From a virus (lineage: Duplodnaviria; Heunggongvirae; Uroviricota; Caudoviricetes), in the IMG/VR virus record IMGVR_UViG_2534681654_000010: a stretch of 43,779 nucleotides of DNA. One strand, given 5' to 3'. This document shows, in pieces, positions 1,789 to 7,800 of this stretch (its first letter is position 1; every line of letters starts with the position of its first letter). The notes beneath the pieces were generated by a model, which worked only from the letters and a program-made list of their open reading frames with translations, was not told where the DNA came from and made no database searches. Both the position numbers and the translations under genes were made by a program.

Positions 1789-2854
1789 ACCGGTAGGCGA
1801 TCTGGTCGTTGATTTAAGTCTGGATGCGGCCAGATTTGACGAGCAGATGGCCAGAGTCAGGCGTCATTTTTCCGGTACGGAAAGTGATGCGAAAAAAACA
1901 GCGGCAGTCGTTGAACAGTCGATGAGCCGGCAGGCGCTGGCTGCACAGAAAGCGGGAATTTCCGTCGGGCAGTATAAAGCCGCCATGCGTATGCTGCCTG
2001 CGCAGTTCACTGACGTGGCCACGCAGCTTGCAGGTGGGCAAAGTCCGTGGCTGATCCTGCTGCAACAGGGGGGGCAGGTGAAGGACTCCTTCGGCGGGAT
2101 GATCCCCATGTTCCGGGGGCTTGCCGGTGCGATCACCCTGCCGATGGTGGGGGCCACCTCGCTGGCGGTGGCGACCGGTGCGCTGGCGTATGCCTGGTAT
2201 CAGGGCAACTCAACCCTGTCCGATTTCAACAAAACGCTGGTCCTTTCCGGCAATCAGGCCGGGCTGACGGCAGATCGTATGCTGGTCCTGTCCAGAGCCG
2301 GGCAGGCGGCAGGGCTGACGTTTAACCAGACCAGCGAGTCACTCAGCGCACTGGTTAAGGCGGGGGTAAGCGGTGAGGCTCAGATTGCGTCCATCAGCCA
2401 GAGTGTGGCGCGTTTCTCCTCTGCATCAGGCGTGGAGGTGGACAAGGTCGCTGAAGCCTTCGGGAAGCTGACCACTGACCCGACGTCGGGGCTGACAGCG
2501 ATGGCGCGCCAGTTCCATAACGTGACGGCGGAGCAGATTGCGTATGTTGCTCAGTTGCAGCGTTCCGGCGAAGAAGCCGGGGCATTGCAGGCGGCGAACG
2601 AGGCCGCGACGAAAGGGTTTGATGACCAGACCCGCCGCCTGAAAGAGAACATGGGCACGCTGGAAACCTGGGCAGACAGGACAGCACGGGCATTCAAATC
2701 CATGTGGGATGCGGTGCTGGATATTGGTCGTCCTGATACCGCGCAGGAGATGCTGATTAAGGCAGAGGCCGCGTTTAAGAAAGCGGACGATATCTGGAAT
2801 CTGCGCAAGGATGATTATTTTGTTAACGATGAAGCGCGGGCGCGTTACTGGGAT
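1781..2854 (+). pseudogene. H: tape measure protein H, N-terminal fragment (codons 1-358), disrupted by insertion
   Basis: MAEPVGDLVVDLSLDAARFDEQ…DEARARYWD matches the lambda gpH N-terminus; after codon D (2852-2854) the frame reads 7 unrelated codons (IARRFF*) into the inserted element and stops at 2875. Confidence 0.9.
2850..2854. repeat. target-site duplication GGGAT, left copy
   Basis: GGGAT ends the H-homologous left flank; the identical pentamer begins the H-homologous right flank at 41610-41614. Joining the flanks with one copy restores …tac tgg gat gat cgt… (YWDDR). Confidence 0.8.
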
Positions 2855-2936
2855 ATAGCGCGGCGATTTTTTTGATACCGATTTGCATTTCATTTGATAC
2901 CGCTGAAAAACGCCGATACGCAACTTATTTGATACT
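2855..2936. repeat. element end (Mu right-end equivalent) with three TTTGATAC(C) transposase-binding-like repeats
   Basis: TTTGATAC at about 2871-2879, 2893-2901 and 2928-2936; reverse complements (GGTATCAAA) recur at the other end. Confidence 0.6.
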
Positions 2937-2981
2937 AAATCGGCGCTTTTCTTTTGAGTTTTAGAATGAGTTTTTAAGCGC

Positions 2982-3719
2982 TCATTCACTCTCTTTCAAA
3001 CCAGTTTTAACTGTTTGTGGTTTTGGGTAAGGCTGGACTTTGAATAGCTTTGTGTTGAGGCGTTTTCTGGCCCTCTTGTTCAGAAACCGGATGTAACGAA
3101 ACTGTCGGAACTTATGAACACTGGCTCTGTCAATATTAGCCCTCAGATGTTCACCTCGTTGTCCGCCTCGTTTAATGGCATTCCTGCAAATCTCGTGATA
3201 CCACTCGCCATCAAGTTCATAGAATATTGATTCATGGCTGCCTACATAATCAAAATTGCTTGCCTGATACACGACACCAAGACAGCCACAACGCTCATCT
3301 GCAAACGACTGAACCCACTGTACCTGCGGATAAAGCTGCCTGATTAGCTTGAGCGCGTAACTGATTGCCCTTGATTCGGAGTTTCTCGGCATACAGTCAT
3401 GCAGCCATAGCCGGTTAAGCTCCATATATTCTCGGTTCTGCGTACCCGTTACGACGCGTGCACCACTGTTTGGGTTAAGGGCGTAACCCCATTGCATTAC
3501 GCCAACAAGTTCCCGTTCTGAAAATATGCCCAGATGAAGGTAGGAGTTATTTACGAAACGGTGGCTGTAATGTTTATTGACGATGACCAGTCTGGCCAGC
3601 CAGCAACTTATTGTCTCAACCCGCAACTCACGGGAGCCATAACCAACGATATTGTCGTTATAGCGAATAAGTTCAGGCGTGCTGATGATTCGGGATGTGA
3701 CTTGCTTTCTGTTCCCCAC
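2982..3719 (-). CDS. mom: DNA modification protein Mom (adenine modification, anti-restriction)
   Basis: Product …[59 protein letters not shown]… matches my recollection of Mu Mom; last gene before the element end; 5' end overlaps com. Exact start codon uncertain. Confidence 0.8.
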
Positions 3720-3873
3720 GACAGGATTTCCTTGTGTATGTGGGGTGCTCTGTGGCGCTCGGAGATGTGATTTGATTGAGGGTTTTACAGCGCGGACATT
3801 TTACTTCCAGATAACTGAAACTGGCCCGTGCCAGTAGCTTATTGCAGTGTCGGCACCGTATGTTTCGATACAT
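3673..3873 (-). CDS. com: Com zinc-finger translational activator of mom
   Basis: [14 protein letters not shown]…CPRCK… has the CxxC…CxxC zinc ribbon and resembles Mu Com; AGGAGG RBS upstream of the ATG at 3873; 3' end overlaps mom. Confidence 0.75.
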
Positions 3874-3960
3874 GACCGCATAACCTCCTGCTTTGTTGTT
3901 GATGCCTTTCTCATGCAATCGATCGACAAAAACGATCGATTCGATTTGTTTAATTGATAC
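3874..3960 (-). promoter_or_regulatory. putative mom promoter/operator region with clustered Dam GATC sites
   Basis: GATC at about 3921-3924 and 3934-3937 (two more near 4044-4059) just upstream of com, followed by an AT-rich tract; Mu mom expression is Dam-methylation dependent. Confidence 0.4.
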
Positions 3961-4284
3961 AACAAATAGATTGAAAAGTCATCAACAATGATTCAGGGAG
4001 GTGATTATTTACTTAAAGAAAACGAAGAGTTAGGTGGTGAAAACGATCATAAAATGATCATTTTATTGACTTTTTATACAGTGAAGGTAGGATCACGCGT
4101 ATATGTAGTATGTTTCAAATCAACAGGATACTACATAAAAGTGAAACCCAGCATAGCTGGAACTATGCTGGGTCAATCTGTAAAAACTTGCATCAATGCT
4201 TTACTTCGAGCTCGTGGCGTATCCTATGATATTCCCCGGTCTCCTGTAAAGCAGAGATGCATAAAAAGGAGATCTTTATCATGG

Positions 4285-4452
4285 ATGAAAGAGCCTGTTT
4301 GCCCTGCCTGTAAGACTCCCTTACAGCTCATCTATCGCCGTTCTCGATCTCAAAATGGCAAGACATACAAACCCAAAAATGCTTCCTGTTTCAGGATGCT
4401 GATATGTCCTGCCTGTTCTCCCAGGAGGGAAAATACACAAAACGTGCATTAA
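4285..4452 (+). CDS. hypothetical small zinc-ribbon protein (CPAC…CPAC), speculative
   Basis: 55-codon frame MKEPVCPACKTPLQ…CFRMLICPACSPRR… with two CPxC motifs; AAAAAGGAGA lies upstream but is better spaced for a 10-codon ORF at 4281; AT-rich context. Confidence 0.3.
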   Translation: MKEPVCPACKTPLQLIYRRSRSQNGKTYKPKNASCFRMLICPACSPRRENTQNVH

Positions 4453-4461
4453 CAAACTCAC

Positions 4462-4481
4462 CCGGCAGGGAAACCTGCCGG
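4462..4481. terminator. perfect 8-bp stem / GAAA-loop hairpin between convergent ORFs
   Basis: CCGGCAGG-GAAA-CCTGCCGG between the plus-strand ORF ending 4452 and the minus-strand ORF ending 4491; no strong U-tract on either side. Confidence 0.4.
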
Positions 4482-4490
4482 TCGGTATTG

Positions 4491-4736
4491 TTACATCATA
4501 GTACCGTCAGTTCCGGGCTGAACCGGCTCTGGTTGCTCTACGGGTTGAGGATCATTTTCCGTGCTGTTTTCAGCCGGAGAACGGCCAACCATTCGGGCCA
4601 GCACTTCATCAACATATGCGTCGATTTGTGCCTCAAAATCCTTGCGAACCTGCGCCTTCAGCACGCGGTTCACTTCTTCAGAATAAAGTGCCTGTTTGAC
4701 AAGCTCTTCAGTAACCGTGCCTTTAATCTCTGGCAT
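4491..4736 (-). CDS. hypothetical 81-aa acidic protein
   Basis: ATG preceded by AAAGGAGA RBS; no family recognised. Confidence 0.5.
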   Translation of the reverse strand: MPEIKGTVTEELVKQALYSEEVNRVLKAQVRKDFEAQIDAYVDEVLARMVGRSPAENSTENDPQPVEQPEPVQPGTDGTMM

Positions 4737-4771
4737 GAATATTCTCCTTTTGCAGGTATATTGCCCCGTTA

Positions 4772-4954
4772 TCAGAGCGGGGTCGGGTCGTTTGGGGATG
4801 ACGGTGCCTGTGCTGTTTTACTGAGTTTTTCAGCTGCCGCATCATCAATTTTACGGCGAATATAATTTCTGATGACCTTATAACCACCGCTCACCAGATA
4901 TAACGCACTGACCACAGCGCAGAAATAAAGCAGCATTGTATGAACGAATGTCAT
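4772..4954 (-). CDS. hypothetical 60-aa single-pass membrane protein
   Basis: ATG preceded by AAGGTAAGG RBS; hydrophobic N-terminal helix (MLLYFCAVVSALYLVSGG) then a charged tail. Confidence 0.5.
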   Translation of the reverse strand: MTFVHTMLLYFCAVVSALYLVSGGYKVIRNYIRRKIDDAAAEKLSKTAQAPSSPNDPTPL

Positions 4955-5100
4955 ATAACCTTACCTTTGATATTGACTACATAATTCGTTATCGGGTAAA
5001 AACATCGAAGCGACTGATAACCACTCCTTCGGGAGTATTTTTATTTTCCTTTATGGGTTAGGTAGCTCCCGCCAGCCATATCATGACCGGCGGGATTTTT

Positions 5101-7140
5101 TTATTCTGTTACCGCTTTTTTCACTTCCACCACAATGCTGTCAATCAGCACCGGGTAAGTTGCATTTTTTGTGATATCCGTTACGCGGAGTTTGTCCACC
5201 GGGAAAGTTCCTACTGGTGACTGCGTCAGGGTAAACGCGGCACCATCCTGACCATCAATAACCGGAATAACCTGAAGGCTGTTATTTCCTGCAAAACGGA
5301 AGGCCAGCGTATGCCATTCATTATCAAATGCACCAAAGGTTCCCAGTTTCTGGTTATTTGTTGCCACTTTTGCATTGTGGTACATCACATTCAGGTCTTT
5401 TGCGTCTGTCTGGATGTAGAACGATGCCAGCAGATTATTCCCTGCATCCCCTGTCAGGGTGACACCCTGCGGCAGAGAGGAAACCGGCCAGTAAAGCCCC
5501 ATGACATACTGGTTTGCCACCAGGTCGCCAGGTACTTTAAAACGACAACTGATTAAACCACCATTTTTCAGCAGTTCAGCACCAGTACCGGCATCATGAT
5601 CCAGATACCAGGATGATTTACCTGTTTCCTTGGTCAGTTTCATTGCCTTACCACCTGTGCCTCCTGCATCACTGATAATTTCAGCTTTACCGCCAGCCGG
5701 CTCCCAGCCCTGGGCTTTCAGATTTCCTTCTGACTCACTGACACGATAAGACAGCAGTGTTGTGGTTACTGCTTCAGTTTCTGAAGGTGACGGCACTGGT
5801 GCTTCAGTTTCAGAAGATGGAACATCGGCTTTTACTGTGGTTCGCCCCGCATGAGTCAGAACTGCCGTGGCCAGACGGTCGGAAATAATCCCACGACGTG
5901 CCCATGAACTGAAATGGCTGGCCCGGTCCGCAGATGTCCAGGTGGCGGCACTGTTACGCCACGTTGAGCCGTAATAACCAATGGATTCAATATCCGGGTC
6001 TTCTGCCGGATTGTTGGTGGGTACATTCGCGTCATTTTCATCTGTCATTAATGGAACGAAATGAATGTTTTTATCTGTTTTGTTTTTGTAGCCGCCATAG
6101 ATTGCCTGGTATGCCGGTTCATTTTTCTGTTTCCAGAAATACGTGGTATCGCCACAAATCCACGGAACGCCAGCAGCACTGCCACCGGTACACTGTTCCG
6201 CCTGTTCAGCCAGGTCTGCGCGGAATTTTTCCACCATCGCCAGAAACAGCGCGGAATGCTCCGTCGGCTTCGCATCAATATCAAACTCGCCCTGCATCCA
6301 CACCACAGCAAGCAGGCGGTTTTTCGGGTTCTTCGCCAGTGCCGCTTTTGTCCGGCTGATTAAGTCCTTATACAGCGGCTTATCCACACCCCAGCGGGCT
6401 GAGTCCTCTGAAGCACCCGTGCTGTCACTGTACGTGCCGTCAGCACCCGCCGTGAATGCAGAACCACCACGGCAGCAGGGAACCAGCAGAATCCCCGCAT
6501 CTGCCGGAATAAACGGCAGCAGTTTTTTGGCAATGTGAAGCCCCTGACCCACGGTGCCATATTGCCCTTTAGCCACATCCGCTTTCGGGTGATTTTTTCC
6601 ACTCATATCCTGCACATCATGCAGACAGTGGTCGGCCAGAATGATGTCGTTATACTGACAGGCTTTACCTCCCGGCGTGACTGTACTGCGACGGGCTAAC
6701 TGCATAATACGCGGTTCGGGGCGGTCATATGTCTCCGGCAGTGGCAGACCTTCACCGTAAGCCATACCGTTTGACTGACCAGCAAGAACCACCACGTAAT
6801 ACCAGGAAGGGGAGCTGGAAGCAGTTTCATTTCCTGACGGACGGGTATGTGTTTCAGCATTATCCCAGTCTGACGGTTCAGCAGTACCGGCAACATCAGC
6901 ACTTAACGGAATGACCGCACCAATACCCGCTCCGGTAATTTCCACACTCGGATCACCGGATACTGGCCTTACCCACAGGCAATCCCGTGTATTAAAACTG
7001 ATGAGACAGTCAGCAAATGTCATTCCTCCTTTTGTTTCGGCCGGAGGAAAGGGAGCCTCAAGAAATGCCGCTGTACCACCGGAAACTTTAACAGTAAAGT
7101 TTCCGGGCATTGATGATAGTTGAACCCATTTGGACGTCAT
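5101..7140 (-). CDS. SGNH/SASA-family esterase, NanS-p-like (putative sialate O-acetylesterase) with C-terminal lectin-like domain
   Basis: 679 aa; GQSN serine motif in YYVVVLAGQSNGMAYGEG and overall resemblance to prophage-encoded NanS-p esterases of E. coli; lies between gin and com-mom. Confidence 0.6.
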   Translation of the reverse strand: MTSKWVQLSSMPGNFTVKVSGGTAAFLEAPFPPAETKGGMTFADCLISFNTRDCLWVRPVSGDPSVEITGAGIGAVIPLSADVAGTAEPSDWDNAETHTRPSGNETASSSPSWYYVVVLAGQSNGMAYGEGLPLPETYDRPEPRIMQLARRSTVTPGGKACQYNDIILADHCLHDVQDMSGKNHPKADVAKGQYGTVGQGLHIAKKLLPFIPADAGILLVPCCRGGSAFTAGADGTYSDSTGASEDSARWGVDKPLYKDLISRTKAALAKNPKNRLLAVVWMQGEFDIDAKPTEHSALFLAMVEKFRADLAEQAEQCTGGSAAGVPWICGDTTYFWKQKNEPAYQAIYGGYKNKTDKNIHFVPLMTDENDANVPTNNPAEDPDIESIGYYGSTWRNSAATWTSADRASHFSSWARRGIISDRLATAVLTHAGRTTVKADVPSSETEAPVPSPSETEAVTTTLLSYRVSESEGNLKAQGWEPAGGKAEIISDAGGTGGKAMKLTKETGKSSWYLDHDAGTGAELLKNGGLISCRFKVPGDLVANQYVMGLYWPVSSLPQGVTLTGDAGNNLLASFYIQTDAKDLNVMYHNAKVATNNQKLGTFGAFDNEWHTLAFRFAGNNSLQVIPVIDGQDGAAFTLTQSPVGTFPVDKLRVTDITKNATYPVLIDSIVVEVKKAVTE

Positions 7141-7239
7141 AATAATCAGCCTGTTCCTGAATAAACTGAATTATCATATCCACAGACCGATAAACGCCAT
7201 TTTGCGTTAATTCAGTAAAGGCCCAACAAAGAGAGCGTC

Positions 7240-7800
7240 TTATTTTTCCGAAACGCTCGCAGGATAATAACGATAAAGGGTTGAAAGGCCGATATCAAAA
7301 ATAAGTGCCACCTGTCTTCGACTGACACCCCCGGCCAGTAAACGCCCGACCTGCTCGTATTGTTCCTGCGTGAGACGACGGGGTCTGCCGCCGGTTCGTC
7401 CCCTTTCACGGGCAGCTGCAAGACCAGCCCGTGTCCGTTCGACAATTAATTCACGCTCCATTTCTGCCAGCGCACCCATTATGTGAAAAAAGAAGCGCCC
7501 CATGGGGGGTGACGTATCAATGTTGTCAGTAAGACTACGAAAATTTATCCCCTGTTGCTGTAATTCATCTGTCAGCGCAACAAGGTGGCGCATACTGCGC
7601 CCCAGCCTGTCCAGTTTCCAGACCATCAGTGTGTCACCGGGTTTTAGTTTCTTCAGTGCCCGCTTCAGTCCCGGCCGCTGTGTCGTTTTACCACTCATTT
7701 TATCTTCAAAAATCTGCTCACATCCTGCACATTCCAGCGCATTTCTTTGTAAACCTGTGTTCTGGTCATTTGTTGATACGCGTATATAGCCAATCAGCAT
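7240..7800 (-). CDS. gin: Gin-type serine recombinase (DNA invertase)
   Basis: MLIGYIRVSTNDQNTGLQRNALECAGCEQIFEDKMSG… is a typical Gin/Hin/Pin/Cin resolvase-family invertase with C-terminal HTH; adjacent to the invertible tail-fibre segment. Confidence 0.9.
   Translation of the reverse strand: MLIGYIRVSTNDQNTGLQRNALECAGCEQIFEDKMSGKTTQRPGLKRALKKLKPGDTLMVWKLDRLGRSMRHLVALTDELQQQGINFRSLTDNIDTSPPMGRFFFHIMGALAEMERELIVERTRAGLAAARERGRTGGRPRRLTQEQYEQVGRLLAGGVSRRQVALIFDIGLSTLYRYYPASVSEK

Follow-up and report, generated by a model that had tools for sequence, protein, structure and literature searches.

NanS-p esterases let pathogenic Escherichia coli feed on the O-acetylated sialic acids of mucus, and many copies are present in enterohemorrhagic E. 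coli (EHEC). The closest described system is the NanS-p region of prophages of Shiga toxin (Stx) phages and other lambdoid phages, which runs from L0105 to S in phage 933W (PMC10462455, PMC8065619), and DUF826 and DUF1378 open reading frames (ORFs) between nanS-p and S have been mentioned in passing (PMC10462455). Here we analysed positions 4,285 to 4,954 of the IMG/VR virus record IMGVR_UViG_2534681654_000010 (43,779 nucleotides (nt); the whole stretch is called the window), which holds an Sp18-type Mu-like transposable prophage of E. coli. The window holds the same three genes in the same order, and a terminator follows DUF826 in both systems. It differs from the Stx phages in that the block lies between gin and com of a Mu-like prophage and not upstream of a holin gene, and in that the N-terminus of its esterase has no DUF1737.

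With a probability of roughly 0.65, the region is where two accessory units, independent of each other, meet in the variable gin–com interval of this prophage type. The unit on the minus strand would be a mobile moron that consists of a NanS-p-type esterase gene, a small RNA (sRNA) gene in the spacer, DUF1378, DUF826, and a terminator hairpin. The unit on the plus strand would be a zinc-ribbon gene with a structured leader and a conserved promoter back-to-back with the mom control region, and it would end at the same hairpin. What is new is the strict structure of the cassette across phage types, its terminator, the placement within it of EcOnc37, an Hfq-bound RNA of EHEC prophages, and the reinterpretation of ECs_4996. 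A preliminary description had reported three small ORFs with ribosome-binding sites (RBSs) and a hairpin here, all of which we recovered at the same positions from the ORF list and by reading the sequence. The genes and the hairpin are as follows (aa, amino acids; pI, isoelectric point).

2982–3719, minus strand: mom, a Mu-type backbone gene flanking the cargo (Pfam Mom and annotation)
3673–3873, minus strand: com, a Mu-type backbone gene flanking the cargo (Pfam Zn_ribbon_Com and annotation)
3988–4452, plus strand: 154-aa ORF of the RefSeq/PGAP annotation (ECs_4996)
4285–4452, plus strand: zinc-ribbon gene, 55 aa, two CPxC motifs, pI 10 (part of ECs_4996 in the Sakai annotation)
4461–4480, between the two directions: 8-bp hairpin with a GAAA loop, CCGGCAGG-GAAA-CCTGCCGG, 8 nt past the zinc-ribbon stop and 10 nt past the DUF826 stop
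4491–4736, minus strand: DUF826 gene, 81 aa (Pfam PF05696, phrog_311; ECs_4995 in Sakai)
4772–4954, minus strand: DUF1378 gene, 60 aa (Pfam PF07125, phrog_494; ECs_4994 in Sakai)
5101–7140, minus strand: NanS-p-type sialate O-acetylesterase, 679 aa, the first gene of the cassette (Pfam SASA and DUF6645; ECs_4993)
7240–7800, minus strand: gin-type DNA invertase, a backbone gene that flanks the cargo opposite to com and mom (Pfam Resolvase and HTH_7)

The minus-strand genes are tightly linked. In all 80 IMG/VR loci that were retrieved with the DUF1378 alignment, the esterase, DUF1378, and DUF826 follow one another in this order on one strand; 53 of these loci are lambdoid, with holin and lysozyme genes next, and 27 are Mu-like, with com/mom next. 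A survey from the esterase side, which covered the 73 close relatives with enough downstream DNA, found that both small genes follow in 72. The sole exception is a P2-like phage (L172) with the esterase and a 50-aa member of DUF1378 (29.9 bits) but without DUF826, and its gene order is holin, lysozyme, Rz, esterase, DUF1378, gpR, gpS, and gpV. Thus, in three phage backbones that are unrelated to one another, the small genes accompany the esterase and not the lysis genes. In lambdoid and Mu-like phages, DUF1378, DUF826, and a NanS-p-type esterase travel together with or without the zinc-ribbon gene. The order in the lambdoid late region is stx (or another moron), NanS-p, DUF1378, DUF826, an S21-type holin gene, and the endolysin gene, and the late region of Stx and other lambdoid phages is the canonical home of DUF1378 and DUF826. 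The window esterase is 74% identical to NanS-p of Stx phage PA28 over residues 65–673 and differs at the N-terminus, and no signal peptide was visible on reading its sequence. The L172 locus (1973–7255) comes from a metagenome; its esterase is frameshifted at the C-terminus, and the esterase and the divergent DUF1378 gene are inserted between an Rz-like gene and gpR.

On the minus strand of the window the gene order is gin, esterase, DUF1378, DUF826, com, and mom. In phage Mu the gap between gin and com is only 95 bp, and thus the ~3.4 kb between them in the window is cargo, in agreement with the earlier remark that these genes match no Mu function. At the same site, L024-type Mu-like prophages hold other genes. 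The promoter scan found only weak promoter-like matches upstream of the esterase. The region is AT-rich, as had also been remarked, yet mildly so (GC content of 48.1% in 4285–4954 versus 53.6% in the prophage). Positions 3900–5100 are 100% identical to many chromosomes of O157 and other Stx-producing E. coli (STEC), with a match in 224 of 5,426 complete E. coli genomes. The same element is found at many chromosomal sites (frvX, ves/cho, rpoS, paaX, and sorM), and this pattern is expected because the phage transposes. The window prophage interrupts frvX (window 2855–2981; L001). Although Sp18 of strain Sakai is the identical element, the window is not Sakai's own insertion, since frvX is intact in Sakai and Sp18 interrupts sorM; the window thus stems from another O157 lineage, for example FDAARGOS_293.

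A hairpin lies directly 3' of the DUF826 stop codon in 32 of the 36 distinct downstream sequences. The stems differ and a T-tract is often present; a clear T-tract is typical of the lambdoid version, for example AGGGCCATCAGT-AAAGA-GCTGGTGGCCCT-TTTGTTGTTG, which lies between DUF826 and the holin gene. In the window, the hairpin separates the two directions of transcription between the two stop codons, just as the preliminary description had it, and a fold of the 61 nt around it has −22.9 kcal/mol (z = −3.5), a value reached by 2 of 200 shuffles. Cassette variants with another neighbour become homologous to the window again exactly at this hairpin. Since a hairpin is kept after DUF826 with differing stems and the homology resumes there, it is the cassette's own terminator. 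In these two respects, its own terminator and its presence or absence at the same site, the block is a classical moron in the sense of Juhala and Hendrix. Judged by its position, the hairpin probably also ends the convergent zinc-ribbon transcript.

The DUF1378 and DUF826 families are catalogued but uncharacterised. The 60-aa protein matches PF07125 over model positions 1–59 of 59 (131.5 bits, E = 1.2e-38), and residues 1–52 of the 81-aa protein match PF05696 (56.7 bits, E = 2.8e-15), with phrog_311 matching at E = 6.6e-30; both Pfam scores exceed the gathering threshold, which is 25 bits for either family. The window genes are already annotated as DUF826 and DUF1378 in STEC genomes in RefSeq, and some prophage records leave both unannotated. 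The RBS of DUF826 is AAGGAG, 6 nt 5' of the ATG, and that of DUF1378 is AAGG/GGTAAGG, 4–5 nt 5' of the ATG. Comparisons with Mu-like, Stx-phage, Citrobacter, and Cedecea relatives showed purifying selection on both genes, with a ratio of nonsynonymous to synonymous differences (pN/pS) of 0.28–0.45 for DUF1378 and 0.23–0.56 for DUF826. The identity to the Stx-phage copies is ~52% for DUF1378 and ~42% for DUF826. Only a single DUF1378 locus, in Cedecea, was found among the GTDB species representatives, and thus the DUF1378 family is narrow. A literature search for the two families returned the one passing mention (PMC10462455), and searches with WP accessions and old locus tags gave nothing.

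Members of the DUF1378 family are 50–61 aa long with one N-terminal transmembrane helix. The hydropathy profile of the window protein has one hydrophobic stretch (residues ~3–24, with the peak at 3–21), which agrees with its earlier description as a single-pass membrane peptide, and a basic tail follows (pI 9.8). In the motif LYL.SGGY, residues L17, Y18, L19, S21, G22, G23, and Y24 are invariant in 11 diverse members, with a basic helix after the motif. DUF1378 is most likely a bitopic inner-membrane protein with its N-terminus outside and its basic tail in the cytoplasm, as the positive-inside rule predicts. DUF826 is acidic, as had been reported, with a pI of 4.3. Its AlphaFold2 (AF2) model has a helix at 9–16, a long helix at 19–49, and a disordered acidic proline-rich tail at 54–80, and most likely DUF826 is soluble, acidic, and helical and acts together with DUF1378 on the cytoplasmic side of the membrane. 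A membrane-anchored basic helix with an acidic helical partner would be a reasonable model of the pair. Searches of PDB sequences with the two proteins and the zinc-ribbon protein gave no hit at E ≤ 1.

The spacer between the esterase and DUF1378 is 130–165 nt long, and its architecture is conserved in all backbones. An A-run straight after the esterase stop codon is followed by a GC-rich hairpin, which on the opposite strand forms a strong intrinsic terminator. On that opposite strand, ~80 nt away and 19 nt from the DUF1378 start codon, there is a promoter-like pair, TTGACN-17/18-TAAAAA. Promoter-like pair and terminator are both present in 59 of 69 distinct spacers, and the median predicted RNA is ~80 nt. 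In the window, these elements are as follows.

4973–5102, plus strand: antisense sRNA gene (promoter-like pair and terminator), which coincides with Hfq-bound EcOnc37
4973–4978, plus strand: −35 element, TTGACT
4997–5002, plus strand: −10 element, TAAAAA
~5009, plus strand: predicted start of the sRNA, with the transcript at ~5009–5102
5067–5095, plus strand: terminator hairpin of the sRNA
5096–5102, plus strand: T7 tract

EHEC prophages encode Hfq-binding sRNAs, which include the EcOnc series as well as AsxR, AgvB, and HnrS (PMC4104026, PMC13502914). Among the peaks of cross-linking and analysis of cDNAs with Hfq (Hfq-CRAC) that were predicted to be sRNAs are EcOnc37 in Sp18, EcOnc51 in Sp12, and EcOnc52 in Sp4 (Tree et al. 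2014; PMC4104026, Table S2). The EcOnc37 peak, at 5077340–5077410 on the minus strand, was seen in 5/5 datasets and has a Rho-independent terminator (PMC4104026). The published coordinates refer to an older Sakai sequence, and past ~2.23 Mb NC_002695.2 is shifted by +128 bp. The shift was checked with HnrS/EcOnc10: the end of the HnrS-like sRNA in NC_002695.2 is at 2234435, compared with a published peak at 2234239–2234287, and the sRNA has CTTCT and the mazF-complementary CCCAATCAGTACATT as described in PMC13502914. In NC_002695.2, the three peaks lie as follows.

5077468–5077538, minus strand: EcOnc37 after the shift, equal to window plus strand 5040–5110; predicted RNA at 5077476–5077572, equal to window plus strand ~5009–5102
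2237607–2237683: EcOnc51 after the shift; predicted RNA at 2237617–2237683
1181998–1182075: EcOnc52, with no shift at 1.18 Mb; predicted RNA at 1182010–1182076

Because the published Hfq-CRAC peaks coincide with the predicted RNAs on the same strand, the antisense RNA has been detected experimentally. The spacer RNA is EcOnc37, and EcOnc51 and EcOnc52 are its relatives. HnrS was ruled out since it sits near bor/Rz of Sp12, and EcOnc04 since it sits 5' of the esterase. Like other sRNAs of EHEC prophages, EcOnc37 is a short, Hfq-bound RNA with an intrinsic terminator at its end, and it converges on a moron coding sequence. It is not among the characterised ones, of which AsxR lies 3' of stx2B, and no function or target of EcOnc37 has been reported in the literature. 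An Rfam scan of 3600–5200 gave no hit near threshold. To our knowledge, the fixed place of EcOnc37 beside DUF1378 has not been noted previously.

Complementarity between the sRNA and the DUF1378 leader covers positions −55 to −149 and includes neither the Shine–Dalgarno sequence (SD) nor the ORF. Expression of DUF1378 and DUF826 probably depends on read-through from the esterase (or gin), and the read-through transcript would cross the promoter and body of EcOnc37 head-on. Since the sRNA is convergent with this read-through, it should interfere with the expression of DUF1378 and DUF826, which is probably lowered or uncoupled from that of the esterase. The hairpin at 5067–5095 pairs better on the minus (esterase) strand. 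There it has 13 bp, two of which are G-U pairs that turn into A-C mismatches on the sRNA strand, and it may lend stability to the 3' end of the esterase mRNA as well. In Sakai Sp4 (1182009–1182130), an IS629 is inserted just past the sRNA promoter, and in Sakai Sp12 (2237230–2237690) a second hairpin and T-run upstream could belong to another sRNA.

The zinc-ribbon ORF on the plus strand is a separate gene that forms a monocistronic unit, and it belongs to a tiny uncatalogued family. The two CPxC motifs that had been noted in it are CPAC at residues 6–9 and 41–44. In a search of 1.84 billion cluster representatives, the only distant homologue was P0100 (53 aa, 43% identity, E = 1.9e-6), which has both CPxC motifs and the motif GKTY(K/R)PK. 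The P0100 gene occupies the same position in Mu-like prophages without the esterase, DUF1378, and DUF826, ~390 bp away from com and on the other strand, and in L024 it has its own strong terminator. Compared with the P0100 type, the gene has a pN of 0.32 versus a saturated pS of 0.77; close alleles show 4 synonymous versus 0–1 nonsynonymous changes, and dN/dS is 0.07–0.4 within types. All three ORFs are thus under purifying selection, which bears out the earlier reading of them as real small genes. In L004-type prophages, two small convergent genes unrelated to it take the place of the segment 4259–~4460, and the junction is at 4258/4259. These genes (L004 5321–5690; also in L005, L034, L037, L041, and L043) encode 68 aa on the plus strand and 66 aa on the minus strand, their 3' ends overlap, and they have no family match.

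Like Com, the translational activator of Mu, the zinc-ribbon protein is small and basic, has four cysteines, and is encoded in the same neighbourhood; unlike in Com, the cysteine spacing is CX2C-X31-CX2C. Kinship with Com was rejected, as Pfam gave no PF10122 (Zn_ribbon_Com) match and BLASTP against the window Com gave E = 0.015 over 13 residues (CPxCKT). The only Pfam match of the ORF was sub-threshold, to Trm112p (17.2 bits versus a cut-off of 22). The AF2 model has four beta strands (predicted local distance difference test score of 79.7), and a Foldseek search with it against PDB found nothing below E = 1.7 and only generic zinc ribbons. The protein probably binds nucleic acid.

The RBS of the zinc-ribbon gene, AAGGAG at 4266–4271, lies 13 nt before ATG 4285 and 9 nt before ATG 4281. 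Seven related alleles lack G4287, and in these the zinc-ribbon frame starts at ATG 4281, 9 nt after AAGGAG, and encodes 56 aa (MDKEPVCPAC...), while the long frame diverges from it and stops after 135 aa (P0012, 213 contigs). The extra G4287 shifts the frame and creates the in-frame ATG 4285. It is also present in L031 and L033, and it leaves a 10-codon mini-ORF from ATG 4281 with a better SD spacing; given this mini-ORF, translation of the zinc-ribbon gene may be reduced in O157 alleles. Upstream of the gene, the following features were found.

4066–4093, plus strand: sigma-70-like promoter-like site TTGACT-16-TAGGAT (promoter scan)
Within 4066–4284, plus strand: structured zinc-ribbon leader of ~185 nt (fold and conservation)
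4102–4137, plus strand: leader hairpin 1
4146–4173, plus strand: leader hairpin 2, with at least 5 different fully paired sequence versions
4189–4261, plus strand: leader helix 3, which is long and has some G-C to G-U and compensatory changes
4238–4245, plus strand: anti-SD sequence GGTCTCCT, which can pair with the SD

A 201-nt fold of the leader has −65.3 kcal/mol (z = −5.3). The leader is conserved in L024, L025, and L118–L121, and the intergenic DNA between com and the zinc-ribbon gene is better conserved than the ORF downstream. One variant has TTGACG-17-TATAAT at the same promoter position. Where prophages carry a different small gene, the leader is kept to base 4258, and thus it looks like a reusable expression slot that faces away from com/mom. 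L034, L119, and L120 have a tandem duplication of the leader unit "ACTACATAAAGGG, hairpin, GCATCAATGCTTTACTTCGAG".

Several points weigh against a junction of two accessory units of this make-up. In Cedecea, Mu-like prophages hold DUF1378 alone beside a Dam-type methylase, without the esterase and DUF826, and thus DUF1378 is not strictly dependent on either partner. Likewise, Sp4 and Sp12 of Sakai retain the esterase and the sRNA and have lost both DUF1378 and DUF826, and thus the esterase is not strictly dependent on them. The tight linkage may be due to co-inheritance of a cassette instead of joint function. The U-tract of the window terminator is weak on both strands, so termination may be partial there, and the −10 element of the sRNA is without the usual final T, with a 5' end that comes from prediction and not from mapping. 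Frameshifts in L012 and L121 show that the zinc-ribbon gene is dispensable. Finally, searches of PDB sequences, of folds with the zinc-ribbon model, of PADLOC, and of NCBIfam gave no function for the three proteins. In the Cedecea loci (L021–L023 and L026), DUF1378 is 54 aa long and lies between tail-fibre genes and the gene for the Dam-type methyltransferase, with no antisense sRNA elements.

As for function, our preferred reading, which is tentative and draws on the linkage, is that DUF1378 and DUF826 are accessory to the signal-less esterase, for example in membrane targeting, release, or envelope modulation, and have no part in the Mu life cycle. A wider proposal, that NanS-p, DUF1378, DUF826, and an EcOnc37-type sRNA form a self-contained four-part unit, is rather doubtful; the sRNA-restrained pair of a minimal membrane protein and its partner in the cytoplasm would release or target the esterase without phage lysis, or would be a type I-like addiction module that retains the esterase cassette. 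Either version, if true, would explain why lambdoid, Mu-like, and P2-like architectures captured it intact. Two small genes that nearly always follow NanS-p, and an Hfq-bound antisense RNA between, have so far been ignored, and a block that moves as a unit among lambdoid, Mu-like, and P2-like phages is a testable candidate for the deployment of a signal-less enzyme or for cassette maintenance. If no functional idea holds, the region is ordinary phage cargo. The layout of DUF1378 and the sRNA resembles that of type I toxin–antitoxin loci (tisB/istR-1, hok/sok, zorO/orzO), in that the gene of a small membrane protein with a single pass directly follows a conserved cis-antisense sRNA, which binds Hfq, has its own promoter, and overlaps the leader. 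DUF1378 could then be a type I toxin-like membrane peptide, the EcOnc37-family sRNA its antitoxin, and DUF826 a modulator, and the system would stabilise the cassette or prophage or act by abortive infection. The size and single helix of DUF1378, the recurrence of the sRNA elements with the −35 so near the start codon, the binding to Hfq, and the presence of the loci in multiple prophage copies, as in many type I systems, are consistent with such a toxin. We nevertheless consider it improbable. The sRNA pairs with a part of the leader that spares the SD and the ORF, the SD of DUF1378 is strong, exposed, and not obviously sequestered, and DUF1378, as the second gene of an operon, comes after an enzyme gene of 2 kb, which sets it apart from the known type I toxins. 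The RNA and the peptide also occur each without the other, the sRNA in Sp4 and Sp12 and DUF1378 in Cedecea. Toxicity of DUF1378 is hypothetical, by analogy, and PADLOC gave no match.

The position of DUF1378 and DUF826 immediately upstream of the S21-type holin and endolysin genes in the 53 lambdoid loci could also mean that they are an antiholin-like pair that regulates lysis timing in the lambdoid pinholin/signal-anchor-release (SAR) endolysin cassette and that they hitchhike with the esterase in Mu-like prophages. Such a pair, one small protein in the membrane and one in the cytoplasm, would be reminiscent of T4 RI/RIII. A role in lysis timing is quite unlikely, because both genes are intact and under purifying selection in the 27 Mu-like loci, where, as in the window, no lysis gene is adjacent; because in the lambdoid phages a bona fide holin is present separately, behind the terminator that follows DUF826; and because in the P2-like locus DUF1378 comes after the lysis cassette and is paired with the esterase. 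Pfam gave no holin match. The preliminary description had compared all three ORFs to one exclusion or toxin–antitoxin-like module, for which the compact convergent layout, the strong RBSs, and the single hairpin could speak. We find a single module scarcely credible. The conservation and synteny check that had been proposed for it confirmed the reading frames; it did not confirm the three genes as conserved neighbours, since the zinc-ribbon gene occurs without the DUF genes and the DUF genes without the zinc-ribbon gene, and the zinc-ribbon segment is replaced by unrelated small genes in L004-type prophages. PADLOC, Pfam, and NCBIfam gave no match to a toxin–antitoxin (type II included) or defence model, and no PADLOC hit was better than E = 0.05. 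For the plus strand, the 154-aa ORF could be the true gene, with the zinc ribbon as its C-terminal domain. In its favour are the RefSeq annotation, a match of the N-terminal ~104 aa to phrog_26524, and a replacement of hairpin 2 that preserves the frame (net length difference of 6 nt). Against this, the long frame joins the zinc-ribbon frame only in alleles with the extra G4287, while the zinc-ribbon frame keeps its own ATG and SD; a stop codon closes the long frame in L024-type loci despite highly conserved DNA; and the stretch holds the promoter-like site, three conserved hairpins, and 6 GATC sites. A genuine 154-aa gene is thus very unlikely. The ORF is probably an artefact in which the non-coding leader and the zinc-ribbon ORF are fused, and ECs_4996-type 154-aa proteins in annotations probably hide a 55/56-aa zinc-ribbon gene and its structured leader. 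The Sakai Ribo-seq small-gene supplements contain no zinc-ribbon sequence, which is uninformative because the locus was already annotated as ECs_4996. A further ORF of 153 aa (4404–4865, plus strand), antisense to DUF826 and DUF1378, was treated as a shadow ORF; it has no independent support, and no family match was sought for it.

The plus-strand unit also resembles the com–mom control region of Mu, where the divergent promoter momP2 is known (PMC3378877). In both, a promoter points away from com/mom in GATC-rich DNA, and by this analogy the plus-strand promoter of the window may be the counterpart of momP2. The Mu region is 95 bp long and momP2 drives no known gene, whereas the region in the window is ~410 bp long and its promoter would drive the structured leader and the conserved zinc-ribbon gene; the control DNA between com and the zinc-ribbon gene is not alignable with Mu. 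Six GATC sites are present in 411 bp (3874–4284: 3921, 3934, 4045, 4056, 4091, and 4271), compared with 1 per 313 bp overall. The mom and com genes have none. In the plus-strand promoter, the −10 overlaps with the site at 4091, and a perfect palindrome of 18 bp, ATAAAATGATCATTTTAT (4048–4065), adjoins the −35. The GATC sites and the palindrome suggest that both divergent promoters are under a control sensitive to Dam. The best-scoring terminator-like site of the region is hairpin 2 with the TTCACTTTTAT that follows it on the minus strand (4145–4174), and hairpin 2 may also insulate the mom promoter from read-through of the cargo genes.

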